From NCBI GenBank assembly GCA_965205485.1, contig OZ242180.1:923016-987015 (forward strand): 64,000 nt of DNA, given 5' to 3'. Below the pieces are notes generated by a model. The model was not told the DNA's origin and made no database searches. It worked only from the letters and a program-made list of their open reading frames with translations. The position numbers and the translations under genes were made by a program. Source of the stretch: Candidatus Latescibacterota bacterium (lineage in GTDB: Bacteria; Latescibacterota; UBA2968; GCA-2709665). Below, piece by piece: positions 8,329 to 64,000 of this stretch. How positions within the stretch are numbered: the stretch's first letter is position 1; each line of letters starts with the position of its first letter.

Positions 8329-10362
8329 ATGTTGAGACTCGCCCTGCTGATCACGATCATTCTCTGCGTCTCCAGCCCGACGGCGGCCGCAAAGCGGGAC
8401 GCGTACAAGGTGGCGGCCCTGTTGGCCTCCGCGGCGGATACCTCACTGTCGCACATGAAGCGAGTGTCGCTGATGGAGCGGGCGGCCCGGTATGATCCAT
8501 CGGGAAGGGCGATGCACGCGCTGGCCAGGCACTATCTGAGCCGTGGCACGGTGTTGTCCAGACGGTTTGCGAGGCAGTGGGTGCACAGGGCGATGAAGCG
8601 CGAACCGGAGAACGCCGCATACGTCAAGACGTACGCGGAGATCTACTGGCAGGCGGGTTCGCGCGATGAATTCTACGAGCAGATCCGCCGGGCGATCGCG
8701 CTGTCGCCGAATGACGCGGACGCCCTCTATCAGGCCGGAAGATACGCCGCCCGTGAAATGATGTACAATCTCGAACGGGAAACCCTGAAATCGGGCCCGG
8801 AACGGAAGCGAAGGTTTAATTACGGGAATTACGGCGAAGCAATGCGGGAGCAGGCAATCGGCTATCTGAGCCGCGTTCTGGAAGTGGACCCGAAACATCG
8901 TCCCGCACGGATTCTGCTGGGCCAGGTCTACCTCGAGGGCCATATGGCCGTTCGGCTCGTGGAACTGTTCGAGGATTACGCGGAGCGCAACCCGGAAGAC
9001 TGGGATGCGTTTTTTTTCACCGGGCTGGGTTACCAGACACGAGAAGAACTGGACAAGGCATTCGCCGCCTATTCGGAAGGCCTGAAACAGATGTCAGGAT
9101 TGAAACAGCAATTCATCAGGTCGGTGGTGGTTTTGACGGACCGGGAGGCGTTGAGGGACGGGGGCGAACTTCCTGACGAAGAGACCCTGCGCCGGTTCTG
9201 GACAGGCCGGGACCCCTTGTTCCTGACACCGGGAAACGAGCGGATGCTTGAACACTGCAGGCGGGTGGCGTATGCCAATCTGAGGTTTGCCGATCCGGAC
9301 CGCGGCGTCGAAGGCTGGGAGACGGACCGCGGCCAGGTATACATAAGGTATGGACAACCGGGCGCGCGAAACATCTATCTGGACCGGATGAATTACGTGC
9401 TGCTCCGCGAGACGTGGCGCTATCCGGGGTTCAGCATAACGTTCGAACGCCTGGGTGAAAACAACTGGGACGTGCTGCAGGTTTCGATTCGGGGATCGGT
9501 ACGAAGCAAATACAAGGACCTCGTGGAGCGGGTTCCCGAGTACTACAGCGACCCGTACTGGCTGAAACGGTACGACGCGCCCTTCGAGATCGCGAGGTTT
9601 CGCGGCGAGGACGGCAAGACCCGGGTGGAGCTGTACTATGCGCTTTACGGCGAACACGTCGCGCACCGGGAGGTCAGTTCGGGATTGCAGGCGGTGGATC
9701 TCAGGCAGGGCCTGTTCCTGTTTGACGAAGGATGGCAGGAAGTCAGGAAGACCATTTCACCCATTCATCGAATGCCGTGGATCGAAGGCAATGCCGTGCG
9801 GGATGGATACCTTTTCTGGGGCGAGCGCCTTTCCATGGATCCGGGGACGTACCACCTGGCGGTCGAAACGGAGGACCTGAACAAACACAGCCTGGGGACC
9901 CTTCGCGATTCGTTGCAGATCAGGCGGTACGGCCGGGACAGGCTGGCAATCAGCGACCTGCTCCTGGCTCAGCGGGTGGTCGAACAGGACGATCGACCGT
10001 TCGGCCGGGACAGGTTTATGGTGTTGCCCAACCCGTTGAAGCAATGCCAGCGGGACGCCAGCATGTCGTTCTACTTCGAGGTCTACAATCTGAAGCGGGA
10101 CGAGTTCGGCGCCACCCGTTACCGGATCACTTACCAGACCCGCCTGCTTCCGGAAAAGTGGAAGGAAGAGGACGTGGTCATTCCCGAGTGGACAACGGCC
10201 GTGACCAACTCGTACAGAGAGACGAGGGATTGGCAGCCGCATTATCTCACCCTGGATATGGAGGGGTCCACGCCGGGACCATGGGCATTCAGGGTGATCG
10301 TGGAGGACCGGCAGGCGGAAAGCAGGGCGACGAGTTCGGCGGTGTTCCGCGTGATGCCGTGA
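8329..10362 (+). CDS. GWxTD domain-containing secreted protein (paralogue 2)
   Basis: Signal peptide MLRLALLITIILCVSSPTAAA. Core motif GVEGWETDRGQVYIRYGQP. Colinear similarity to 6033-8144 along the whole length. An in-frame TTG at 8317 is an alternative start. Confidence 0.75.
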   Translation: MLRLALLITIILCVSSPTAAAKRDAYKVAALLASAADTSLSHMKRVSLMERAARYDPSGRAMHALARHYLSRGTVLSRRFARQWVHRAMKREPENAAYVKTYAEIYWQAGSRDEFYEQIRRAIALSPNDADALYQAGRYAAREMMYNLERETLKSGPERKRRFNYGNYGEAMREQAIGYLSRVLEVDPKHRPARILLGQVYLEGHMAVRLVELFEDYAERNPEDWDAFFFTGLGYQTREELDKAFAAYSEGLKQMSGLKQQFIRSVVVLTDREALRDGGELPDEETLRRFWTGRDPLFLTPGNERMLEHCRRVAYANLRFADPDRGVEGWETDRGQVYIRYGQPGARNIYLDRMNYVLLRETWRYPGFSITFERLGENNWDVLQVSIRGSVRSKYKDLVERVPEYYSDPYWLKRYDAPFEIARFRGEDGKTRVELYYALYGEHVAHREVSSGLQAVDLRQGLFLFDEGWQEVRKTISPIHRMPWIEGNAVRDGYLFWGERLSMDPGTYHLAVETEDLNKHSLGTLRDSLQIRRYGRDRLAISDLLLAQRVVEQDDRPFGRDRFMVLPNPLKQCQRDASMSFYFEVYNLKRDEFGATRYRITYQTRLLPEKWKEEDVVIPEWTTAVTNSYRETRDWQPHYLTLDMEGSTPGPWAFRVIVEDRQAESRATSSAVFRVMP

Positions 10363-53929: not shown

Positions 53930-54520
53930 ATGACGGACGCCGAGTTGATCAGGCGCTTCCGCGACGGCGAGTCGCATGCCTTCAATGGTCTGGCAAGGCG
54001 CTGGCACCGCAGGTTGTACAACTTCATCCTGCGCCAGGTCGGAGACCGCGAGGAAGCGCACGATCTGTGCCAGAAGGTGCTGATCAAGGCCCACCGAAAT
54101 CTCCGCCGGCTTCGGGACTCCGGAAAGTTTTCCACGTGGATCTATCAGATCGCAGTCAACACCTGCCGGGACGAGTTGCGGAGAAGAAGGCGTCATCCCA
54201 CAATCTCGCTGGAAAGCCTGGAACACGGCGACGACTCGCGGCCGGAGGACAGATTGAAGATTTCAGCACAGACAGATGCCGCGATTCAAGTGTGCGAGCT
54301 TCGCGATTTACTAAACAGGGCGCTGCAGTGCATTCCGCACGAACAACGGATTGTCGTCGTGATGAAGGAATACGAGCAACTGAAATTCACGGAAATCGCC
54401 GCCATCCTGAACCTGTCCGTCAATACGGTAAAATCCCGGCTCTACTACGGGCTGAACAACCTTCGAAAACTGCTGGATCAATGGAACGTAAACCGGGAGA
54501 CCATCGATTATGAAATGTGA
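53930..54520 (+). CDS. ECF (group 4) RNA polymerase sigma-70 factor
   Basis: Region 2 (FNGLARRWHRRLYNFILRQVGDREEAHDLCQKVLIKAHRNL) and region 4 (FTEIAAILNLSVNTVKSRLYYGLNNLRKLL). Confidence 0.85.
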   Translation: MTDAELIRRFRDGESHAFNGLARRWHRRLYNFILRQVGDREEAHDLCQKVLIKAHRNLRRLRDSGKFSTWIYQIAVNTCRDELRRRRRHPTISLESLEHGDDSRPEDRLKISAQTDAAIQVCELRDLLNRALQCIPHEQRIVVVMKEYEQLKFTEIAAILNLSVNTVKSRLYYGLNNLRKLLDQWNVNRETIDYEM

Positions 54521-55220
54521 TCTGCCAAAAGAGGAGCTAGTCGGCTATCTCTACGACGACGTCGATGTGGACAAGAAGGCCGGCATCGAATCCCACCTGA
54601 ACACCTGTCCTTCCTGCACACAGGCGCTGGAGGAACTCAAGAGGACCGGCAACCTGCTGCGCGCATGGGCGGACGAAAACCCCCCTGCGAGCCTGGTCTT
54701 CGTGCCTGACAGACGCACCTGGTGGAATGGCATCATACCTGACTGCCTGTCCACGGGCAACCGGCGCTGGCTGGCGCCGGGGCTTTCAATGGGACTGGCC
54801 GCCGTCATCTTGATCTTGGCGGCGTTCAACCTTGAGGCACGATTCGACGGTCAGGGGGGAGTTCTCGTGAAGCTTCGGCTCCCCATGGGCGTGGGGCCAG
54901 AACGGACTGACGCGGCCAACGATGTCCCGCTTTCACGGTCGGAGTTTGTGCAGGTGCAGCAACAGTCGCTCGCCGTGATCCAGGACTGGATCGATGAAGG
55001 ACACCAACGGCAGCGCGTAGAACTCGGACTCATCCTGGACGATTTCGCCCGGGACCTGGAAGCCCAGCGCCGCCGGGACCTGCTGCTGGTAGGCCAGGGT
55101 CTACGAGAAATCGACGGGGCAACGGAAAGCCGATTCATGCAGACCGAAGACCTTCTGCACCACCTGCTGGCAGTATCATACGCACAGGCGAATCCGATCA
55201 GACCTCCCACCGTTGAATGA
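54510..55220 (+). CDS. anti-sigma factor with a zf-HC2 zinc-binding motif and one TM segment
   Basis: Motif HLNTCPSCTQALEEL. A TM segment LSMGLAAVILILAAF. Overlaps the sigma gene by 11 nt. Confidence 0.75.
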   Translation: MKCDLPKEELVGYLYDDVDVDKKAGIESHLNTCPSCTQALEELKRTGNLLRAWADENPPASLVFVPDRRTWWNGIIPDCLSTGNRRWLAPGLSMGLAAVILILAAFNLEARFDGQGGVLVKLRLPMGVGPERTDAANDVPLSRSEFVQVQQQSLAVIQDWIDEGHQRQRVELGLILDDFARDLEAQRRRDLLLVGQGLREIDGATESRFMQTEDLLHHLLAVSYAQANPIRPPTVE

Positions 55221-55241
55221 CATACAAAAGGAGCATGAATT

Positions 55242-56497
55242 ATGAAATCCTATCACGTTTTCGCCATCGCAATGGCCTTCTGCCTGGTTCTTCCGGCCCT
55301 TCCCTGCGAAGCCGAAATCGACAGGGAGCGCATGCGGCAGGACCTGGACATCATGGAAGGCATCCTGCAGAACCTCCACGCCAGACGACGTCCAGGCTGG
55401 CCGGAATCCAACGAGAGCCACACGTTAGGGGATTGTACTTCGGAGATTATGGGGTCGTATTCCTGATTGAAGAACCCGGTTCGTCACGATTTTTTTTCCC
55501 TGGTCCCAGATCCTCGCACCGTGTCACGAGGGTGTACAGAATGCAAGCTGATGGCGCTGATACGACTGACTTGAAGGCTCAACGTGAAAAGAAACTCATT
55601 GGAGTTAAGAATCAGCTAGCGGATTTTCTGGGCACGTACGCTGATGCGGTCCGGCAACTGACAGACGACGACCGTATTTCCATCCTGGTCTTTTTGAAAC
55701 GCAATTCTCCTATGCGTTCTAAACTGAAGGCTGCGTCCGCTAGTGAATCAAATTTAAGATCAGCATTGCAGGTAGTATCAAAAGACCGCCCCTTGGAATT
55801 GAAGGGAACCATTGATCCTGAAAGACAAAACAACGACACTTCTCGAAACAAGAAAGACCGGGAACGGAAGACGCAGCACTACACTGTGACGACCGAACAG
55901 TTCTACCTTGAGGCGACAACAAAAAAAAGCGATATCGTGGCATACCGCCGTGAGCGAATTAACGAGGCTCAGTTCAGGAAGAGAATTGATTATCGTGAGC
56001 ACAGAACGGACGGGACTACGATGAAAAAGATCGGAGTTATGGCTGCCATCCTCGATATGACACTAAACCAGCCCGCCCATCTGGTCCCAAACTCCAACAG
56101 AACCGCAGGCATATACCAGGAAGGGCTGGGGGCAATCTTCTTTGTGAAAGAGCACGGCGGGTATCGTAGAGAAATCAATCGAGCCATTATCAGAGAGCTT
56201 AGATCCCCTACTTATCGCCACAGCCATGGGAATGTCATCAAATCAGAAAAGCAGCTTCAGAACCGGCTAAAGGGAGACCTGATTGAGGTGGTGGGGGACT
56301 ACGGATATTCCCTGCGCACCCTCAAGCCTAGCGAATCCATCGTCGTGGACGTGCGGTTTCCGAAGAGAATGCGGAGAAAGCCATCCGATCCTCGAGGCCT
56401 TGTACTAATGGTAAAGAAGCAGGACGTAGATGCCTACACCCGGAAGGACATCGACCTGGCAGCTTTTCGCGAGAAAGTGGATATCCAGGAGTATTAG
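55242..56497 (+). CDS. hypothetical secreted protein with internal repeats, likely one gene with a frameshift near 55400-55440
   Basis: Signal peptide MKSYHVFAIAMAFCLVLPALPCEA in a 74-aa ORF. The long ORF 55217-56497 overlaps it in the -1 frame. Internal duplication RGLYFGDYGVVFLIEEPG / AGIYQEGLGAIFFVKEHGG. Lower-GC region. Confidence 0.4.
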
Positions 56498-56526
56498 ACC
56501 CGCGGAGAACTGTCCCCGGAGGCGGG

Positions 56527-56551
56527 CGGGCGCCCACAAGGGACGCCCCTA
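56527..56551. repeat. second copy of the 25-bp repeat CGGGCGCCCACAAGGGACGCCCCTAC
   Basis: Exact match to 12463-12487. Confidence 0.5.
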
Positions 56552-56680
56552 CATGCGATGAGGAGTGAATCAGGATTGCGGGCGCAGGATCGGTACGGCC
56601 AACCGTGTATCTTGCGGTACGGTCGCCGGACCAGCGCCTCCAACGTTTCAGGCGAACTGCATTGTACCGAAATCGGCGCC

Positions 56681-56722
56681 GTTATTTGAAACGCACGGCG
56701 CCGGGTTTTTTTTGCCCTATGG
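56681..56722 (+). terminator. rho-independent terminator
   Basis: CGGCGCC-gttatttgaaacgca-CGGCGCCG followed by a T8 run. A second, weaker hairpin with a T6 run follows at about 56731-56750. Confidence 0.55.
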
Positions 56723-56849
56723 CGGGCGGCTTTTTTGTATTTCGGAATGCAAGCCGTCCGGGTACCGGTTATTCCACGTGCTTTGAATGGGCTTTTTAGC
56801 TGGATCTGATCTGAGGACAGCGTGTTGAACGGGGATTTTATAAAAAACC

Positions 56850-56919
56850 TTGACAAGCCGACTTGATTGTTTTATATATAAAACAAATTATTGACTATAC
56901 AAAATAACGTTTATATTAT
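56850..56919 (+). promoter_or_regulatory. two tandem near-consensus sigma-70 promoters upstream of the outer-membrane protein gene
   Basis: TTGACA-N17-TATATA at 56850-56878 and TTGACT-N17-TATTAT at 56891-56919, in an AT-rich spacer about 75 nt upstream of the ATG at 56994. Confidence 0.45.
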
Positions 56920-56993
56920 ATCCCATTTGTTTTAAACAGAGTATTCATCCGATCCCGATTGGCAGATCAGGTACAGGGAGGGAGTAAAAAAGC

Positions 56994-58370
56994 ATGAAAA
57001 GAGATCGACTTATAGCAGGCTCCGCCGCGTCGTGGAAGTTCATTCTACTTACGCTGATTCCCGGCTTCCTCGTGTTCTCTCTCGAAACCGCCGCCGCGCA
57101 GGACGGCGCAGCCTCCGGAACGGACAGTGATGTAGCGAGCGCAGAGGTCGAGATGGCCAAGGTCGAGGCGGAGGAGCAGGATACCAGGGTGGATGAGGTC
57201 GACATCAAGGAGCTCGAGCGTCGGATCGAGTTGCTCGCCGAGGAACTCGAACGGCTGCGCAGCGGCGAGCCCGAGTACGAGATGACGCTCGACCAGGTCC
57301 GCGCGCTCGGGCTGGCGCCGTCGGCGGCCGCGACCTACAAGATCAAATCGGGCGTATCGATTGCCGGGTACGGCGAAGCGCTCTATGAGAACCACGCCTC
57401 GGACAAGACCGACCAGTTTGACTACCTGCGGGCGATCCTGTACGCCGGCTACCGGTTCAATGACCGGTTCCTGTTCAATTCGGAGATCGAGGTCGAGCAC
57501 GCCAAGGAGATTTTCGTCGAGTTCGCGTACGTCGACTTCCTCGCAAACGAGAATATCGGCGTTCGGGCCGGCATGCTGCTGGTCCCGATGGGACTGGTCA
57601 ACGAGTTCCACGAGCCGACCGTCTTCCTCGGAGCCGAACGACCGGTGACCGAGAACAAGATCATCCCGTCGACCTGGCGGGAAAACGGGGGCGGCGTCTA
57701 CGGCGCGTACGAAAAGTTCGCCTTCCGCGCCTACGTCGTCAATGGCTTCAACGGTTCCGCCTTCTCGTCGAGCGGCGTTCGAGGCGGCCGGCAGAAAGGT
57801 GGAAAGGCCAAGGCGAACGATTTCGCATTGACCGGTCGCCTCGATTTCACGCCGACTCCCGGCGTGTTCCTCGGCGCCAGCTTCTACACCGGAAATTCCG
57901 GACAGGGGGACATCGTTGTCGACGGCAGGAATTACGGCGTCCGTACGAACATCTTCGACGTCCACGCGCAGGTTCAGATGCGCGGCTTCGACCTCCGGGG
58001 TCTCTTCGCACAGGCGCAGATCGAGGACACGCCCCAGCTGAATCATGTGCTCGCGCTGTCCGGCTCGAGCGGCGTCGGCAAGAAGCTGCAGGGCGGCTAC
58101 GTGCAGATCGGCTATGACCTGCTGTCGCAGGCGTCGGGGACCGGCGACGTGGCGCTCACTCCCTACATCCGCTACGAGAAGGTCGACACACACGCGGCCG
58201 TCACGACCGGATTCACACGGAGCGCCTCCAGGGACAATACGTACACGACGTTCGGACTCGATCTGAAGCCAACACCGGGCGTCGTCGTCAAGGTGGACCA
58301 CATGTGGGTGAACAACCCCGCCGACAGCGGCGTCAACCAGTTCAACGTCAACGTCGGGTACGCGTTCTAG
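56994..58370 (+). CDS. outer-membrane beta-barrel (porin-like) protein with an N-terminal coiled-coil region
   Basis: Signal peptide. An acidic coiled-coil segment. Alternating amphipathic beta-strands. C-terminal ...VNVGYAF ending in a terminal Phe. Confidence 0.6.
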   Translation: MKRDRLIAGSAASWKFILLTLIPGFLVFSLETAAAQDGAASGTDSDVASAEVEMAKVEAEEQDTRVDEVDIKELERRIELLAEELERLRSGEPEYEMTLDQVRALGLAPSAAATYKIKSGVSIAGYGEALYENHASDKTDQFDYLRAILYAGYRFNDRFLFNSEIEVEHAKEIFVEFAYVDFLANENIGVRAGMLLVPMGLVNEFHEPTVFLGAERPVTENKIIPSTWRENGGGVYGAYEKFAFRAYVVNGFNGSAFSSSGVRGGRQKGGKAKANDFALTGRLDFTPTPGVFLGASFYTGNSGQGDIVVDGRNYGVRTNIFDVHAQVQMRGFDLRGLFAQAQIEDTPQLNHVLALSGSSGVGKKLQGGYVQIGYDLLSQASGTGDVALTPYIRYEKVDTHAAVTTGFTRSASRDNTYTTFGLDLKPTPGVVVKVDHMWVNNPADSGVNQFNVNVGYAF

Positions 58371-58583
58371 TCCTGTCGCGTTGATTCCTCTCCAATCGCC
58401 CGCCGATTCATCCCGTCTCACGGCGTTGGGCCGACTTTGCGCAGGTCGTCTGCGTTAAGTCGCCGGTTCCGGAGCGATGCCCTGATCCTGTCGAAGGGCC
58501 TGTCGAAGGATGCGAGACGGTTGACTCGACGGGCGAATTTTGGCAACTTATTTTCCGGACACGACACTGGGAGAAGGCCGATC

Positions 58584-59171
58584 ATGGTGCAGAAGTCGTC
58601 CGCCGGGCGGGCTGCGCACAGGCGCGTTGTGAGCGTTCTGGTCACCTGGCTCGCGCTCGCAGGCGGCGCGGCTTCCGAACAGTCCGGTGTCGTGTCGCGC
58701 CAGGAAGCGCTGAACGCGGTCTTCGCCGGCGCGACAATCACCGGGGATCGCGTCTACCTGACGTTCGAGCAGGTGGAACGGATAGCCGCGCTGGCGGGCG
58801 AGGACGTGCGGACCCGAATCTACGCCCGGTACGTAGTGCGGCGCGATGGCGTCGTCGTCGGCAGAGCGTACGTCGACACGCACGTGGTGCGGACCAAACG
58901 CGAGAGCCTGCTCATCTCGCTCGAACCGGACGGGCGGGTGCGCCGCATCGACGTGACCGCATTTCTCGAGCCGCCCGAGTACATCCCCTCCGAGCGATGG
59001 AAGGGTCAGTACTACGGGAAACCGCTCGTTGACGACGTCGCTCTCCACCGTGCGATCCGACCCATCGCGGGGGCGACGCTGACCGCGCACGCCGTCAACG
59101 CCGCCGTGCGCCGCGTGCTGGCCCTCGACATGGTGCTGGAGGGACGCGAGCCCGGGAGGGAAGGGCAATGA
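58584..59171 (+). CDS. FMN-binding domain (FMN_bind) lipo/periplasmic protein
   Basis: Motif GATLTAHAVNAAVRRVL, which resembles the flavinylation target motif of the RnfG/NqrC type. ATG at 58584 has a GGGAGAAGG Shine-Dalgarno. Confidence 0.6.
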   Translation: MVQKSSAGRAAHRRVVSVLVTWLALAGGAASEQSGVVSRQEALNAVFAGATITGDRVYLTFEQVERIAALAGEDVRTRIYARYVVRRDGVVVGRAYVDTHVVRTKRESLLISLEPDGRVRRIDVTAFLEPPEYIPSERWKGQYYGKPLVDDVALHRAIRPIAGATLTAHAVNAAVRRVLALDMVLEGREPGREGQ

Positions 59172-59632
59172 CCTGGTGGGAACGCTGGGGTTTCAATACT
59201 TTCCACGTCATTGTCACGGGAACCGGGATCGTCTACTTTTACATGAAGTACGCCATGACGACCGATGACCCGTTCGCCGTCGTCAACCATCCGTGGCAAT
59301 CCGCGACGCTGTCGGTTCACATCCTCGTGGCGCCGCTGTTCGTCGCTTTCTTCGGTATGTTGTTCCGCTCGCACTCGTTACGGAAGCTGCGTTCACGAAA
59401 GCCGGCAAACCGACGGTCCGGATGGACCTCGCTTCTGAGCTTCACGGTGATGGCCCTCAGCGGCTATCTGATACAGGTCGTGAACACACCGGCGCTCATC
59501 ACTTTCTTCATCTGGACCCACGTCGCGGCCAGCGCAGTTTTCGTTGTCGGCTACGGCCTCCATCTCGTCAACGGCTGGCGGATCACTCCCCGCAGGGCGA
59601 ATGCCACCGCCTCGCGAATGCCGAGACCATGA
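59168..59632 (+). CDS. 4-TM membrane protein (DUF4405-like) of the flavinylation cluster
   Basis: 154 aa with four hydrophobic helices. The ATGA overlaps couple it to both neighbouring genes. Confidence 0.5.
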   Translation: MTWWERWGFNTFHVIVTGTGIVYFYMKYAMTTDDPFAVVNHPWQSATLSVHILVAPLFVAFFGMLFRSHSLRKLRSRKPANRRSGWTSLLSFTVMALSGYLIQVVNTPALITFFIWTHVAASAVFVVGYGLHLVNGWRITPRRANATASRMPRP

Positions 59633-60717
59633 GGACGCTCACGCTGAACCGACTCGCGGTGCGCCGCGCGGTACCGTGGGTCCTGTGGTTGGGAGTCGCG
59701 GCCTGCGCAACAGGGTCGGCTTCCGCGCGCGACACGGGTGGAAGGTATCCAGTCCGCATCGAGCGCACCGTGTTCCTCATGGGCACGTACGCCACCTTCG
59801 TGGCTGAGACCGAGGATCGTCAGACCGGTCTGGCGAAGCTGGAACGTATGGTCCGCGTCATCGAGGACACCGAAGCTGAGCTCAGCACCTGGCGGGACGA
59901 CAGCGTCCTCAGTGCCGTGAATGGACAGCCTGTGGGAACACCCCTGCCTGTCCCGGCCGCCATCTGCGGGCTCTTCTCCCGCATTGCAAAGTGGCATGCG
60001 GCCACGGACGGCGCGTTCGATCCGGCCGTAGGCAACCTCATCAAGGCGTGGGATCTGCGCGGAGAAGGCAGGGAACCGGATGACGGCGAGGCGCTGGCGG
60101 CGCTGGCCGCTTCAGGCTTCGACAAGCTCGTACTCGATGCCGAGACGTGCGCCGTCACGCGGCGCGCAGCGGTCATTCTGGACGCGGGCGGATTCGGCAA
60201 GGGCGAGGCGCTGGATCGGGTCCGAGAGGCCGAGCGCAACCGGCGCGGCGCATGGTTCATCGATTTCGGCGGGCAGGTGGCAGTGTCCGGCGAAGCGTCC
60301 GATGGCCCGTGGTCAGTCGGGCTTGCACATCCGGCGCAACGCCAAAAGGCGGTTCTCGAGTTATCTCTCGCCGCCGGCTCAATCGCCACAAGCAGCGGGT
60401 CCGATAGGGACCCCGCCACGGCGGACGGCCGCCGCATCGGCCATATCGTCGACCCGCGCAACGGCCGGCCGGTCTACCGAACCGGGTCGGTCACCGTCTG
60501 GCACGAAAACGCATTCGTTGCGGACGTGCTCTCGACGGCGCTGTACGTCATGGGAAAGAAAGAGGGGATCGCCTGGGCCGTGCCGCGCGGCATCGCCGCG
60601 TGCTTCTTTTCCGCTGCCCCGCACGCGGACGATGTCGTGTTCCGCGCCACACCTGCATTCACGGCGCGTTTCCCACTGTCCGATTCACCGCCGGGAGAAG
60701 AAGAAACGAAGGATTGA
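59629..60717 (+). CDS. apbE: FAD:protein FMN transferase
   Basis: Lipoprotein-like leader. ApbE blocks DAGGFGKGEA and SIATSSGSDRD. Start at MRTLTL, 4 nt overlapping the upstream stop. Confidence 0.8.
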   Translation: MRTLTLNRLAVRRAVPWVLWLGVAACATGSASARDTGGRYPVRIERTVFLMGTYATFVAETEDRQTGLAKLERMVRVIEDTEAELSTWRDDSVLSAVNGQPVGTPLPVPAAICGLFSRIAKWHAATDGAFDPAVGNLIKAWDLRGEGREPDDGEALAALAASGFDKLVLDAETCAVTRRAAVILDAGGFGKGEALDRVREAERNRRGAWFIDFGGQVAVSGEASDGPWSVGLAHPAQRQKAVLELSLAAGSIATSSGSDRDPATADGRRIGHIVDPRNGRPVYRTGSVTVWHENAFVADVLSTALYVMGKKEGIAWAVPRGIAACFFSAAPHADDVVFRATPAFTARFPLSDSPPGEEETKD

Positions 60718-60875
60718 GGTCGGGAAAGTTACACATGGCTACACGGATCGGCGCCTCGCGAATTCAACGCACGCCGATTTATCTTGTACTGTGGCGGGCG
60801 CCGTGTTTTTGACTTACATTTCAAAATGGAAGCCTGTCCGGACTCCGGTTGCCGCGCCACCGGCCAGATGACTGA

Positions 60876-61925
60876 ATGAACGCACTCGGGAGCAATTCGA
60901 TGCCGGTCAATCTCTCAAGAGACCTGAAACACAAACAAGACGGTTTCGGCGCCGAGCGAAACATCCACGAATACGAAAAAGGCTTCAGGGTGGCCAGGGA
61001 CGCCGTCGCTGAGAATGAAGACAGCGACGACAGGATGGTCAGCGTTCTGTACTACGATCTGGTTACTGACTTCTACGAATACGGTTGGGGCAGATCATTT
61101 CACTTTGCCCCGCGTGTCCCTGGAGAAAGCTTCGAGGCATCGCTTGTACGCCACGAACGCTATCTGGCGCGGGTACTCGGCCTTGAACCCGGGATGGTCG
61201 TCGCCGACGTGGGCTGCGGCGTCGGGGGCCCGCTAATGGAGATCGCGCGATATTCCGGCGCCAGGATCGTCGGCGTGAACAGCAACGCCTATCAACTCGA
61301 ACGCGCCCGGGAACGTACGGTAGAAGCGGGGCTGACGCACCTGGTCGAGTTCCTGCAGTGCGACTTCCTGAACGTGGATGCCGCGGACGAGTCGTTCGAC
61401 GCCGTATACGATATCGAAGCGACCTGCCATGCGCCGGATAAACTCAGCATCTATAGCGAGATCTTTCGTCTTTTAAAACCTGGCGGACGCTTCGGCGGTT
61501 ACCAATACTGCCTGACCGATCGCTTCGACGCCAACGATCCCCAGCATCTCAGGATCAAGGCCGACATCCAGCTGGGTGGCAGCCTGTTCGTGATCGACGA
61601 CACGCACACGGTCGATCAAGCGCTTCGATCTGTTGGCTTTGAGGTACTGGAAGCACGGGATCTTTCGATCCAGAATGGGCCGTCCATCCCCTGGTTTCAA
61701 CCTCTGATCGGTTCCGGTCTTTCTCTGACCGGCTTCCGCAGATCGAGGATCGGGCGCTGGGTCACGCGGAACTCGCTGAGATCGCTCGAAGCGCTACATA
61801 TCGCGCCACGGGGATCGGCCCGCGTAGCAGCAACTCTGGACCTCTGCGCGGAGGCCCTGGCCGAGGCCGGCCGGCTCGGGATCTTCACGCCGATGTACCT
61901 CGTTCACGCCCGCAAACCAGCGTAA
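60876..61925 (+). CDS. sterol 24-C-methyltransferase (ERG6/SMT)-like SAM-dependent methyltransferase
   Basis: SMT region I YEYGWGRSFHF, SAM motif VADVGCGVGGP, region III YDIEATCHAP, plus KPGG and FTPMYLVHARKP. Near-colinear with yeast ERG6 over about 300 aa. Confidence 0.8.
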   Translation: MNALGSNSMPVNLSRDLKHKQDGFGAERNIHEYEKGFRVARDAVAENEDSDDRMVSVLYYDLVTDFYEYGWGRSFHFAPRVPGESFEASLVRHERYLARVLGLEPGMVVADVGCGVGGPLMEIARYSGARIVGVNSNAYQLERARERTVEAGLTHLVEFLQCDFLNVDAADESFDAVYDIEATCHAPDKLSIYSEIFRLLKPGGRFGGYQYCLTDRFDANDPQHLRIKADIQLGGSLFVIDDTHTVDQALRSVGFEVLEARDLSIQNGPSIPWFQPLIGSGLSLTGFRRSRIGRWVTRNSLRSLEALHIAPRGSARVAATLDLCAEALAEAGRLGIFTPMYLVHARKPA

Positions 61926-61959
61926 AGCAATCCAATCGAGCTTGTTCACATCCTGCCAA

Positions 61960-64000
61960 CTATCTGACGGCGGGCATGAAATCCTGTGAGGCCTGGAACT
62001 CCCCCGCGCCGGGGATGGCTTTGGGTTGAACGGTATATTTCCCCCTGGGAACCACGAAAAAAGCGGTGTTCCTGCGCGCGTCGACCCGGGCGTTGTACCG
62101 GACAATACCGTCCCTGTTGCGGATACTCCAGTCGCCCGGCGCCAGGCCGGTCAGCAATAACTGACAGCTTCCATCCCCACCGACCCCCACCTGCAGCGTC
62201 TGCTCCAGCGGCTTGCCGGTCCGGTTCAAGACCACGACCCGGTCCGCCAGCGTGACAACGAAGGCTTCCGGGAGTTCAACGAGGTCGACCGGCAGCTGCT
62301 CCTCCTGTTCGTCACACATCGTCATCACCGTCAGAAACACATCGTTGCTCCGCTCTTCCACGGGTGAGAACATCACGCGATGGCCGTTCGCTTCAGGACG
62401 GTCCGGTTTTGGCGGCGTAAAGTACTGTCCGAACACGCTATTGGCGTCATTTCCGCTCAGGATCTGCGTATCCCGCTCATCCGCCCCCGGTCGCAGCATT
62501 CGCAGCACGACCTTGCCGCTCCCGTCAGCGTCGCTGTTTCTCAGGATAACGCCGTCGTCCGTCGTTTCGGGCGGGTTGAGGGTGTTGACCTGCCAGTATT
62601 TCCTGAACTCCGGTCTGGCCGTGGTCATATTGTCCAGGACGATCAGCGCCGCGGCAGTCTGCTCGTTGTCGAGGTTCAGGAAGCAGAAGGTCCGGACGTA
62701 GTCCTCGATCTTCTCGCTGTAGGCCGACGTCAGATTGACCGAGAAATAGCTGTAGAACGGCCGCTGAGGGGACGGGCCAAAGCTGGTCGAGACGACGCCA
62801 CCGTTGGCGAACGTCGGATCAGAAAGCGCCTGGTCCGGTGTGGTCGGGCAGGATTGAATGAAACGCACGCCCCCGTCATTGACGGTATTCCGAATGAACT
62901 GCTCTTCAGGATCGACCGCCAGCATCATGCTGTGCGAAATCGAACGTTTACAGAAGTTGAAGTCGTAGGGCGTTCCGTAGAAATGGTACTGCCCCAGGTC
63001 GGCCGCCTGCAGCCCGCGGTAGTAGATCTGGAAGCTGCCCGCGTCGGCGTGCTGGTGATTGCCGAAGTGATACCCGCCGCCCTTCATCTCCACGACCACG
63101 TCGGACGCGCCGGGGCCCATGTTCCATCCGGTCCGGGCGACCATCGAACCGAGGATCGGGCCGAAATCGATGGTGAGCGGCAATGAAGAGAAATCCTCGG
63201 CAGCCTTCAAGTCCGGGTCGTTCAGCAGCAGCACCATGATCGGTTCGGAGGGAAGCCCGCCCTGCCGCTCGAAGTCGTGCTTGATGACCGGATCGTTGCT
63301 GTAGGCGTAGCTGAGCAGTGCTGTAGCGCCGAGACTTGCCGGCCGTCCGTCAGAAAACCCGTCGCCGTCACGTAGCGTCTCTCCGTTCGGCATGCGCATG
63401 TAGAGCCAGAACTTGCAGACATCCGCGATGTTGTCGTCGAAGACCCGCTCGCCGGTCATACGGTTAAACAGCCAGGCCGCGTGCATATCCCATCCGAACC
63501 GGTACGGGCCGTAGCTGACGCCCTGGTTGTGGCGCGGGGACCGGTATTCGAACCGGCGCATCGGAACCAGTTCTTCCAGCATGCGGTAGGCGCAATATCG
63601 ATACGGTACCGGGTCTTCGTCGTAGATGGCGATGGCCATGCAGAGCAGATCGCGGTTGACCTGCGCCTCGTTGCCATGGCCGTTGACGATGATCTGCTTG
63701 AACGGCGGCCAGCCGATTTCCATATCGTCGGCGAGGCGCATCAGGTCGGTGCGAATGCTGTTCCTGTCGCTCGGTGTCATCAACTCGTAGCACCAGTCGT
63801 AAACCAATGCCGCAGAGTAGATGGCCCGGCCGATCTCCCTTGTAATATCAAGCAGATTTCCGAATTCGACCGCGGCGAGATAGTCGCGGATCAGCGCCAC
63901 CGCTTCCCGGCCGGGCGTCTCCTCGCCGTTCATCAGATAAACGAAGGCCCTGGCGACGGCCGCTTTCTCGAGTTTCGGATTGTGGCCGACTTCCGTACCC
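61960..64000 (-). CDS. heparinase II/III-like protein, 5'-truncated at the window end
   Basis: Motif GGGYHFGNHQHADAGSFQIYYRG. The reading frame stays open to nt 64000. Confidence 0.75.
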   Translation of the reverse strand, partial: GTEVGHNPKLEKAAVARAFVYLMNGEETPGREAVALIRDYLAAVEFGNLLDITREIGRAIYSAALVYDWCYELMTPSDRNSIRTDLMRLADDMEIGWPPFKQIIVNGHGNEAQVNRDLLCMAIAIYDEDPVPYRYCAYRMLEELVPMRRFEYRSPRHNQGVSYGPYRFGWDMHAAWLFNRMTGERVFDDNIADVCKFWLYMRMPNGETLRDGDGFSDGRPASLGATALLSYAYSNDPVIKHDFERQGGLPSEPIMVLLLNDPDLKAAEDFSSLPLTIDFGPILGSMVARTGWNMGPGASDVVVEMKGGGYHFGNHQHADAGSFQIYYRGLQAADLGQYHFYGTPYDFNFCKRSISHSMMLAVDPEEQFIRNTVNDGGVRFIQSCPTTPDQALSDPTFANGGVVSTSFGPSPQRPFYSYFSVNLTSAYSEKIEDYVRTFCFLNLDNEQTAAALIVLDNMTTARPEFRKYWQVNTLNPPETTDDGVILRNSDADGSGKVVLRMLRPGADERDTQILSGNDANSVFGQYFTPPKPDRPEANGHRVMFSPVEERSNDVFLTVMTMCDEQEEQLPVDLVELPEAFVVTLADRVVVLNRTGKPLEQTLQVGVGGDGSCQLLLTGLAPGDWSIRNRDGIVRYNARVDARRNTAFFVVPRGKYTVQPKAIPGAGEFQASQDFMPAVR

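Follow-up and report, generated by a model that had tools for sequence, protein, structure and literature searches.

Why should a gene for an outer-membrane porin stand at the head of an operon whose other products belong to a covalent-flavin redox system? The question is raised by a cassette of four open reading frames (ORFs) on the + strand that fill positions 56994-60717 of a 64,000-nucleotide (nt) stretch of a Candidatus Latescibacterota genome (contig OZ242180.1), hereafter the window. In the order g1-g2-g3-g4 they encode an outer-membrane porin of 458 amino acids (aa) (56994-58370), a 195-aa exported flavin mononucleotide (FMN)-binding protein with an RnfG/NqrC-like domain (58584-59171), a 154-aa protein with four transmembrane (TM) helices (59168-59632) and the 362-aa ApbE, a flavin adenine dinucleotide (FAD):protein FMN transferase predicted to be a lipoprotein (59629-60717). 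We consider it highly probable that the four genes together make up an extracytosolic electron-transfer unit that depends on flavinylation and has a porin of its own. The further proposal that they build an envelope-spanning module for flavin-dependent reductive iron acquisition, entered through its own cation-selective porin, stands in our judgement at even chances.

Conservation of the cassette and fusions of the porin

Of 83 related loci, 74 keep the order g1-g2-g3-g4 amid varying neighbours, an arrangement far beyond chance that defines a self-contained module. Genes for the porin, the FMN_bind protein and the putative cytochrome b lie side by side in practically all of 85 distant metagenome loci. 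Among species-level genomes, 196 contain close relatives of the porin, and nearly all of these belong to Vicinamibacterales (Acidobacteriota). The nearest relatives of all come from metagenome-assembled genomes (MAGs) labelled Gemmatimonadota (RHO1_bin_28, RHO2_bin_5) and Candidatus Latescibacterota, which share synteny with the window, with nucleotide identities of 86-96%, and whose taxonomic labels conflict. The median identity of 69 Vicinamibacterales loci to the window is 71% for g1, 67% for g2, 66% for g3 and 55% for g4; the porin is conserved at least as well as its partners. Such high conservation is uncommon for outer-membrane proteins.

The porin family comprises 2,630 clusters at 50% identity for matches with E up to 1e-3, and 598 for E up to 1e-30. 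Twenty representatives are longer than 520 aa: in 16 of them the porin is joined to an ApbE domain at the N-terminus, and in one to FTR1. At least ten of the ApbE-porin proteins have no internal signal peptide and are therefore genuine fusions, with the layout signal peptide, ApbE, linker, coiled coil, barrel. Across the 85 distant loci ApbE is found upstream of the porin or fused to it in 45 and downstream in 20, the apbE gene often lying directly before the porin gene. Conservation together with fusion to ApbE in at least ten other lineages argues that the porin is truly part of the system. When the flanking ORFs of these loci were clustered, with P19, EfeO, TonB receptors and Feo among the proteins sought, nothing was found in more than 8 of the 85. 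An exception to the cassette rule is provided by L063 (5986-7332; L numbers designate related loci), from a low-GC relative, in which the porin gene (61% identity) stands alone, followed by two large ORFs, with no g2, g3 or g4 homologue in the locus.

ApbE and its predicted substrate

The product of g4 matches the Pfam ApbE family (PF02424) over the full profile (1-266) with 189.3 bits against a cut-off of 25.6 (E 1.3e-55), and aligns with the solved ApbE structures 5mgy and 6nxi at E values of about 1e-29. In the alignment to 6nxi the segments ATSSG (Ser255/256), GHIVDP (His272, codon 60442-60444, + strand) and ADVLST (Asp299) fall on the catalytic Ser-His-Asp, which in Vibrio cholerae ApbE is Ser241/His257/Asp285 (PMC12052999). 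The N-terminus MRTLTLNRLAVRRAVPWVLWLGVAAC, read directly off the sequence, holds the lipobox VAAC with Cys26 (59704-59706, + strand). The gene is assigned to a start at 59629 (ATG, 362 aa, including the lipobox) instead of 59293. All of this characterises g4 as a predicted extracytosolic lipoprotein and canonical ApbE with its catalytic triad intact. An ApbE had been named here in the preliminary description of this DNA, which had been made from the sequence alone.

Gp2, the product of g2, passes the Pfam FMN_bind profile (PF04205) marginally, with 23.1 bits for a cut-off of 22. It has 1,660 homologues, some of them named 'FMN-binding protein' or 'RnfG', and a minority of those listed carry a precomputed PF04205 match. 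Conservation points to RPIAGATLT (residues 159-167; 59058-59084, + strand) as the predicted flavinylation motif, with Thr165 (59076-59078, + strand) as the residue to which FMN would be linked. Positions I158, R159, P160, I161, A162, G163, T165, L166 and T167 are at least 98% conserved in 120 homologues. The acceptor end of the G-A-[S/T] motif is G163-A164-T165, and distant homologues have T or S in a canonical TGAT/TGAS context. The full motif, D-x-x-[S/T]-G-A-[S/T], begins with an Asp that a review calls strictly conserved, and its replacement by Ala has only minor effects (PMC12052999). Gp2 does not match this full form: position -6 is Arg159 and position -3 is Ala162. Its relatives have Arg or His at position -6, and the distant ones have Thr at position -3. 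On these alignments gp2 is best read as an exported FMN_bind protein and ApbE substrate with a variant motif, in which Thr165 is the predicted acceptor. The FMN-binding protein with a target Thr or Ser that had been anticipated at this locus is indeed there; it is exported, and its Thr is invariant.

The small membrane protein

An AlphaFold2 (AF2) model of the g3 product, with a predicted local distance difference test (pLDDT) score of 68, contains four TM helices in 154 aa. His51, His118 and His132 (codons at 59318, 59519 and 59561, + strand) are invariant in a deep alignment, and His41 and His69, at the membrane boundaries, are at least 90% conserved. His118 and His132 both lie on TM4, 14 residues apart, and His51 is on TM2; His13, on TM1, is 92% conserved in the close clade and missing from many distant members. 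The best match of g3 is to Ni_hydr_CYTB (PF01292), with 18.6 bits, below the cut-off of 30.1, in an end-to-end alignment of residues 9-151 on profile positions 6-176 of 179. The same profile is matched by 14 of 53 homologues (best E 2.9e-6), and one homologue carries a precomputed PF01292 match. Members of that family hold two b haems with four His, of which one lies on TM1, one on TM2 and two on TM4.

The preliminary description called this protein DUF4405-like, a label that is weak. Gp3 gives no match to DUF4405 (PF14358) at E up to 0.1, and the sub-threshold matches of 8 of the 53 homologues (best E 0.0066) compare poorly with the 14 to Ni_hydr_CYTB. The flavinylation-associated DUF4405 cytochrome has six TM helices and four central His (PMC11334425), a description that does not fit the four predicted helices of gp3. 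The broader claim, of a small multi-His membrane protein translationally coupled with the FMN-binding protein and ApbE genes, is borne out. Profile searches with two g3 alignments against all PDB sequences yielded nothing meaningful. Membership in DUF4405 or Ni_hydr_CYTB is not demonstrable; gp3 probably functions like members of those families and, to judge from its conserved histidines, is probably a di-haem cytochrome b.

At four loci, including L151 (9966-10538, + strand) and L121 (2403-3113, + strand), the FMN_bind gene is followed by the gene of a different membrane protein of about 190 aa that g3 queries do not match. Its presence in the g3 slot suggests a modular replacement of the membrane electron carrier.

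The porin

Gp1 opens with a signal peptide (about residues 1-35) and continues with an acidic linker, a helix of heptad repeats and a β-barrel that ends in YAF, the helix forming a predicted periplasmic coiled coil at residues 58-90 (57165-57263, + strand). In the AF2 model, whose strands have a pLDDT of about 80 and whose loops are poor, it is a 16-strand porin with the periplasmic coiled coil, the nearest fold being that of the phosphate porin OprP. Gp1 has no Pfam or NCBIfam match, Porin_O_P (PF07396) included; the Porin_O_P cut-off of 20.9 is passed by two of its distant relatives, with 28.8 and 23.1 bits. A search of all PDB sequences with the porin-family profile returned nothing meaningful.

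The most conserved stretch of the family, [FL]N[ST]ExExEH[AG], served as pattern for scanning metagenomes. It overlaps a segment picked out by the alignments, EIEVEHAKEIFVE (residues 164-176; 57483-57521, + strand), that we call the glutamate ladder. Glu164/166/168 and Glu172/176 lie on the same face of two adjacent strands, as assigned from the structure model, with His169 at the turn, and these residues are invariant or near-invariant family-wide. From the alternation of residues we infer that the ladder faces the barrel lumen. This Glu series makes up the conserved in-strand charges of gp1. Another landmark is NEFHEP (residues 203-208; 57600-57617, + strand), invariant in close and nearly invariant in distant alignments. 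It is the core of a long invariant loop, 198-234 (PMGLVNEFHEP...PSTWRENGGG), which is likely a constriction loop or ligand site. Elements of the family that stay near-invariant at identities as low as about 35% include GYGE, E-x-E-x-E-H (164-169 in gp1), VEF, the loop N-E-x-H-E-P ... P-T-T-W-R-E-N-G, R-x-G-R-Q, His324 and R-Y-E. Three histidines of gp1 are invariant, as is the basic loop RGGRQKGGK. The glutamate ladder and the invariant His suggest a cationic, metal substrate; the ladder of OprP consists of arginines. Neither Cys nor CXXCH nor a flavinylation motif ([S/T]GA[S/T]) occurs in gp1, and a DUF3570-like or Cyc2/Mtr-like role was rejected on these grounds.

Iron-related genes and operators in relatives

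A functional lead that the first inspection had missed is found around the related cassettes: Fur, FTR1, FtrD-like, FeoA and DtxR-like neighbours, and a Fur-type operator. Fifty-one distant loci, each with at least 1.5 kb of upstream sequence, are informative in this respect. A Fur gene is present at 18 of them and FTR1 at 10, the FTR1 assignments being confirmed by Pfam with 86-119 bits. The arrangement is Fur, FTR1-porin, FMN_bind, membrane protein and ApbE in L084, Fur and ApbE-porin in L085, the cassette and then Fur in L086, and FeoA followed downstream by ApbE-porin, FMN_bind and membrane protein in L088. L139 (2195-10322) encodes Fur, an FTR1::FtrD-like fusion, a MacB/FtsX-type ATP-binding cassette (ABC) transporter, a DtxR-like protein, ApbE, porin, FMN_bind and cytochrome b; it is an extended iron operon, and the FtrD-like part of its fusion is an iron-sulfur domain. 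A similar ABC transporter is encoded ahead of the ApbE-porin fusion of L087. For the three Fur-family proteins that were tested, the top-scoring models are those of ferric-uptake regulators; the scores fall short of the equivalog cut-offs, and Zur trails by about 40 bits.

The operator is the palindrome TGAGAYY-N-RRTCTCA (TGAGAYYNRRTCTCA), whose 7-1-7 architecture we take to be that of Fur-family boxes. Exact copies are present in 93 of 168 loci, for a chance expectation, by our own calculation, of about 0.03 matches in 1.86 Mb. The box lies shortly before the first operon gene, fur included, and often occurs twice about 64 nt apart; variants in other loci are TGAAAACgGTTTTCA, TGAAAATcATTTTCA and TGAGAATcATTCTCA.

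Two further features of the Vicinamibacterales loci deserve mention. A second palindrome, CCGACCG-N3-CGGTCGG, is found about 200-280 nt upstream of the porin gene (in L002, L007, L018 and L025, for example), sharing its intergenic regions with the Fur-type boxes. A divergent gene, at 8349-9719 (- strand) in L002 and with homologues in 36 Vicinamibacterales loci, encodes a protein of about 456 aa and about 12 TM segments that has no match in Pfam, NCBIfam or the PDB. This gene may be co-regulated with the cassette. The idea that its product is a flavin exporter similar to multidrug and toxic compound extrusion proteins found no support in those three databases.

Proposed mechanism and alternatives

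Flavinylated systems with membrane cytochromes have repeatedly been tied to iron reduction and assimilation (PMC8238504; PMC11334425). We favour a model in which the lipoprotein ApbE would attach FMN, taken from periplasmic FAD, covalently to Thr165 of gp2. Gp3, probably with two b-type haems on its invariant His, would carry electrons from the membrane quinol pool to the gp2 flavin, which would in turn reduce Fe(III) species in the periplasm. The iron species would enter through gp1, the dedicated OprP-fold porin, presumably made selective for metal cations by its glutamate ladder and three invariant His. Its periplasmic coiled-coil stalk may keep the maturation and redox partners near, ApbE being fused to the stalk in other lineages. 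Fe(II) would finally be taken up by an inner-membrane permease, which could be the FTR1 of the same operon in some relatives and one encoded elsewhere in the genome of the window. Haem binding by gp3, the direction of electron flow, iron as substrate and the selectivity of the porin are elements that we infer.

Several observations weigh against this model. The link to iron is guilt by association: all of it comes from relatives and nothing from within the window, in which tblastn finds no Fur or FTR1 gene and TGAGAYYNRRTCTCA has no match even at 2 mismatches. The Vicinamibacterales loci have no Fur or FTR1 gene within 6 kb, and their boxes lie in the intergenic region shared with the divergent 12-TM gene, which they could regulate instead. 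On the redox side, gp2 has no Asp at the position held to be strictly conserved and has Ala at position -3, and the electron step from quinol to a low-potential FMN may be energetically uphill. Gp3 has no significant match to solved haem proteins by sequence or fold, generic four-helix bundles being its only hits; its structure model is of low confidence, its TM1 His is unconserved in distant members, and the 18-residue spacing of His51 and His69 is atypical for a bis-haem helix. As to the porin, it is precisely in the invariant loops that the model has low confidence, and the orientation of the glutamate ladder towards the lumen has periodicity as its sole basis.

The iron assignment could be right and the electrons flow the other way. 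The porin would then admit Fe(II), whose oxidation in the periplasm, with the FMN protein and the cytochrome b as electron sink, would be coupled to permeation of Fe(III) of the FTR1 type. FTR1 permeases operate with an oxidation step, and a precedent has been proposed for FtrABCD and EfeUOB. The presence of FTR1 in the operon at 10 of the 51 informative loci, once as an FtrD-like fusion, fits this scheme, as do the P19/FTR1 clusters with FMN_bind genes that have been catalogued (PMC8238504). Set against it are the lack, in every cassette, of genes for a ferroxidase, cupredoxin, P19 or EfeO, the lack of FTR1 from most loci, the window included, and L139, in which an FtrD-like sink comes on top of the cassette. 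Protein-bound FMN is, moreover, usually too low in potential for Fe(II) oxidation. We regard reverse flow as improbable, and it is the alternative that survives best.

A Fur-family operator alone is no proof of iron, since Mn, Zn and peroxide are possible signals. The cassette could accordingly serve to take up or reduce Mn or Cu, controlled by a regulator of the Mur, Zur or PerR type, or form a CybB-like electron path linked to superoxide or peroxide. The regulators rank ferric Fur models first by the margin over Zur given above; the recurrent partners are FTR1, FtrD-like proteins and FeoA, together with a DtxR-like repressor; and genes for MntH, ZnuABC and catalase/peroxidase are not recurrent in the flanks. 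The chances of another metal or of a stress function are slim.

The direct fusion or coupling of ApbE to the porin invites another thought, that the barrel handles the flavin itself. An OprP/OprO-like porin would pass flavin nucleotides such as FAD, to supply the tethered ApbE or to release flavin shuttles, and the FMN protein and cytochrome would be a general periplasmic reductase. The nearest fold is that of a phosphate porin, the basic loop RGGRQKGGK is invariant, and the route of FAD to ApbE is described as unresolved (PMC12052999). The invariant glutamate ladder speaks against an anionic substrate, however, and FAD (786 Da) would have little room in a 16-strand barrel narrowed by a constriction loop. 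This view explains the Fur, FTR1 and FeoA neighbourhood only indirectly, and the clustering of flanking ORFs revealed no flavin transporter or biosynthesis genes nearby, so that we judge it very unlikely.

The preliminary description had gone from the outer-membrane barrel to a trans-envelope redox or flavin system, of which the membership of the porin stands, by conservation and ApbE fusions; an MtrCAB-like conduit, with a flavoprotein that passes through the barrel or docks in it and reduces acceptors outside the cell, could appeal to the genetic welding of the barrel to an extracytosolic electron-transfer chain and to the outer-membrane family DUF3570 as a proven ApbE substrate (PMC8238504), but is scarcely credible for a cofactor-free 16-strand porin without Cys, CXXCH or flavinylation motif.

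Relation to known systems

Gene clusters for flavinylated extracytosolic electron transfer have been catalogued so far mostly by bioinformatics. Their membrane partners are PepSY-like, MsrQ-like or DUF4405 proteins, with recurrent links to Fur and iron transporters, and a role as assimilatory iron reductases has been proposed for these clusters (Meheust et al. 2021, PMC8238504; Huang et al. 2024, PMC11334425). The present cassette is of their kind: its ApbE gene stands beside genes for an exported substrate of the FMN_bind type and for a small membrane protein with several His. It differs in its 4-TM partner, which is below every Pfam threshold, in its obligate outer-membrane porin, fused to ApbE in some lineages, and in its hosts, mainly Acidobacteriota (Vicinamibacterales) and allied MAGs, whereas apbE-linked DUF4405 is found mainly in Proteobacteria and Firmicutes (PMC11334425). 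A porin partner, ApbE-porin fusions and PF07396 have no mention in the main texts of PMC8238504 and PMC11334425, and PF07396, PF01292 and Acidobacteria have no entries in the supplementary files examined for the former (eLife) survey. Literature searches combining porin, ApbE, FMN-binding and cytochrome b561, or ApbE, FTR1, Fur and outer membrane, returned general flavinylation papers only. The partnership of a porin with a flavinylation module is not described in the literature searched; the ApbE and FMN_bind parts are of types already known.

Compared with OprP/OprO (Porin_O_P, PF07396) and the coiled-coil porin DcaP, gp1 has no Pfam match and 15% identity to OprP. Its conserved features are an invariant glutamate ladder and His, against the arginine ladder of OprP, and it is tied genetically to a redox module and not, as OprP is, to the phosphate regulon. 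Like cytochromes b561/Ni_hydr_CYTB (FdnI, HyaC, E. coli CybB) and DUF4405, gp3 falls in a size range of about 150-180 aa and has 4 predicted TM helices, the last of which carries two His at a spacing of 14 residues; it differs in scores under the curated cut-offs, an unconserved TM1 His and the extra boundary His H41 and H69. The concept of a metal-regulated non-TonB channel for one metal would be shared with MnoP (Mn2+, Bradyrhizobium, Mur-regulated) and RopAe (Cu) (PMC6011978). Those channels are of other porin families (RopAe is a Porin_2 member) with no co-encoded redox partners.

FTR1 uptake systems (FtrABCD, P19-FTR1, EfeUOB) resemble the cassettes of relatives in which FTR1 belongs to a Fur-headed operon, once in an FtrD-like fusion. 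The cassette has no P19, cupredoxin, EfeO or EfeB, and FTR1 is missing from the window and from most loci. A flavocytochrome reductase that feeds a permease parallels the logic of yeast Fre1 and Fet3/Ftr1. Here the reductase is split into a covalent-FMN protein and a small cytochrome, and an outer-membrane channel is added. It is possible, though we would not bet on it, that the cassette represents an undescribed and widespread iron route across both membranes that needs neither siderophores nor TonB. Such a route would combine metal-cation-selective porins that recruit ApbE via a coiled coil, a covalent-flavin ferric reductase and a new mini cytochrome b family into a diderm counterpart of Fre1/Ftr1, under a Fur operator (TGAGACTnAGTCTCA) not previously defined for Acidobacteriota.

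How an oxidised substrate reaches the diderm periplasm had not been addressed for these systems, and the cassette offers a dedicated, unusually conserved outer-membrane channel for this role. It also adds ApbE-porin fusions and a membrane cytochrome-like family that current profile libraries miss, so that such clusters would appear as 'orphan' ApbE/FMN_bind pairs in existing surveys. Acidobacteriota are a dominant, poorly cultured phylum of soils and the sea. If the iron reading is true, the cassette would provide a testable model of siderophore-independent iron uptake in Acidobacteriota and sponge-associated relatives, a defined operator for mapping the acidobacterial iron regulon, and in the porin a rare metal-selective diffusion channel with clear residues to mutate.

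Operon structure and transcription signals

The four genes had been described as translationally coupled. They lie on one strand, and g2, g3 and g4 are coupled, by ATGA overlaps at 59168-59171 (g2/g3) and 59629-59632 (g3/g4). The coupling does not include g1. The start of g2 is ATG 58584 and TTG 58437 was rejected; homologues measure 187-199 aa, and 195 aa is also the independent gene call in L001, a 96%-identical locus. With this start, g1 and g2 are separated by 213 nt (58371-58583, + strand) and are therefore uncoupled. The spacer, with a hairpin at 58432-58462, was rejected as an RNA element because no significant structure (folding z-score -0.9) and no conservation among close relatives, whose alignment is rich in indels, were found in it. 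A search of 55000-62000 against Rfam gave nothing relevant, and the window has no tRNAs. The cassette has a GC content of about 0.62-0.70 for a window average of about 0.61, which is not distinctive as a signal of horizontal transfer.

Transcription would start in an AT-rich region upstream of g1 (56850-56919, + strand), 15% GC over 60 nt. Of the two near-consensus sigma-70 promoters reported there, a consensus scan retains one, TTGACT-17-TATTAT (56891-56896 and 56914-56919), with 10 of 12 consensus matches. The other, TTGACA-17-TATATA (56850-56855 and 56873-56878), has no T at position 6 of the -10 hexamer and fails. The whole region has 2 promoter-like matches, and shuffled sequences 1.1 ± 1.1. 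A perfect 20-bp palindrome, TTGTTTTATATATAAAACAA (56867-56886), overlaps the first -10 hexamer, and an additional half-site, ATTTGTTTTA, lies at 56925-56934. The palindrome is single in the window at up to 3 mismatches, was matched in 0 of 100 shuffles and is kept with 1-2 changes in L004, L006 and L001; it is a candidate operator for some regulator. Further upstream, TGGATCTGATCTGAG (56801-56815) resembles the Fur-type 7-1-7 box of relatives (compare TGAGATCTGATCTCA) and might, speculatively, be its decayed remnant. A terminator-like hairpin and T-run (TGTGGCGGGCGCCGTG TTTTT; 60790-60815, + strand) after the ApbE gene probably marks the end of the operon.

The AT-rich upstream region is conserved only within the small clade of the window (L004, L006, L001). 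In L001, and likewise in L005, it precedes an rpsD gene inserted ahead of the porin gene. This is a complete gene for 30S ribosomal protein S4 (276 bits), at L001 9229-9837, equivalent to L005 5229-5834 ('Latescibacterota' genome), and is not at that position in the window, L004 or L006. The promoter region of the window may be an rpsD promoter or have a common origin with one. In this lineage the cassette appears to lie behind a strong AT-rich promoter of housekeeping type with a different, even-length palindrome; with the Fur-type operator also absent, its regulation therefore probably differs from that of relatives, and it may not be iron-regulated in the ancestral manner.

Flanking genes

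Three genes lie directly 5' of the cassette on the + strand (53930-56497): 53930-54520 encodes an extracytoplasmic function sigma factor, 54510-55220 a zf-HC2-like anti-sigma factor and 55217-56497 a 426-aa protein to which no function is assigned. This trio is kept in L004 and L006 and missing from L001, and is outside the conserved module. Directly 3', at 60876-61925 (+ strand), is encoded a 349-aa S-adenosylmethionine-dependent methyltransferase with a Sterol_MT_C domain (80.9 bits), similar to sterol C-24 methyltransferases and here part of a bacterial genome. It is followed at 61960-63933 (- strand) by the gene of a protein of 657 aa whose C-terminal domain is of the heparinase II type (38 bits). 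L001 also has a sterol methyltransferase gene of this kind, and the two genes are syntenic there.

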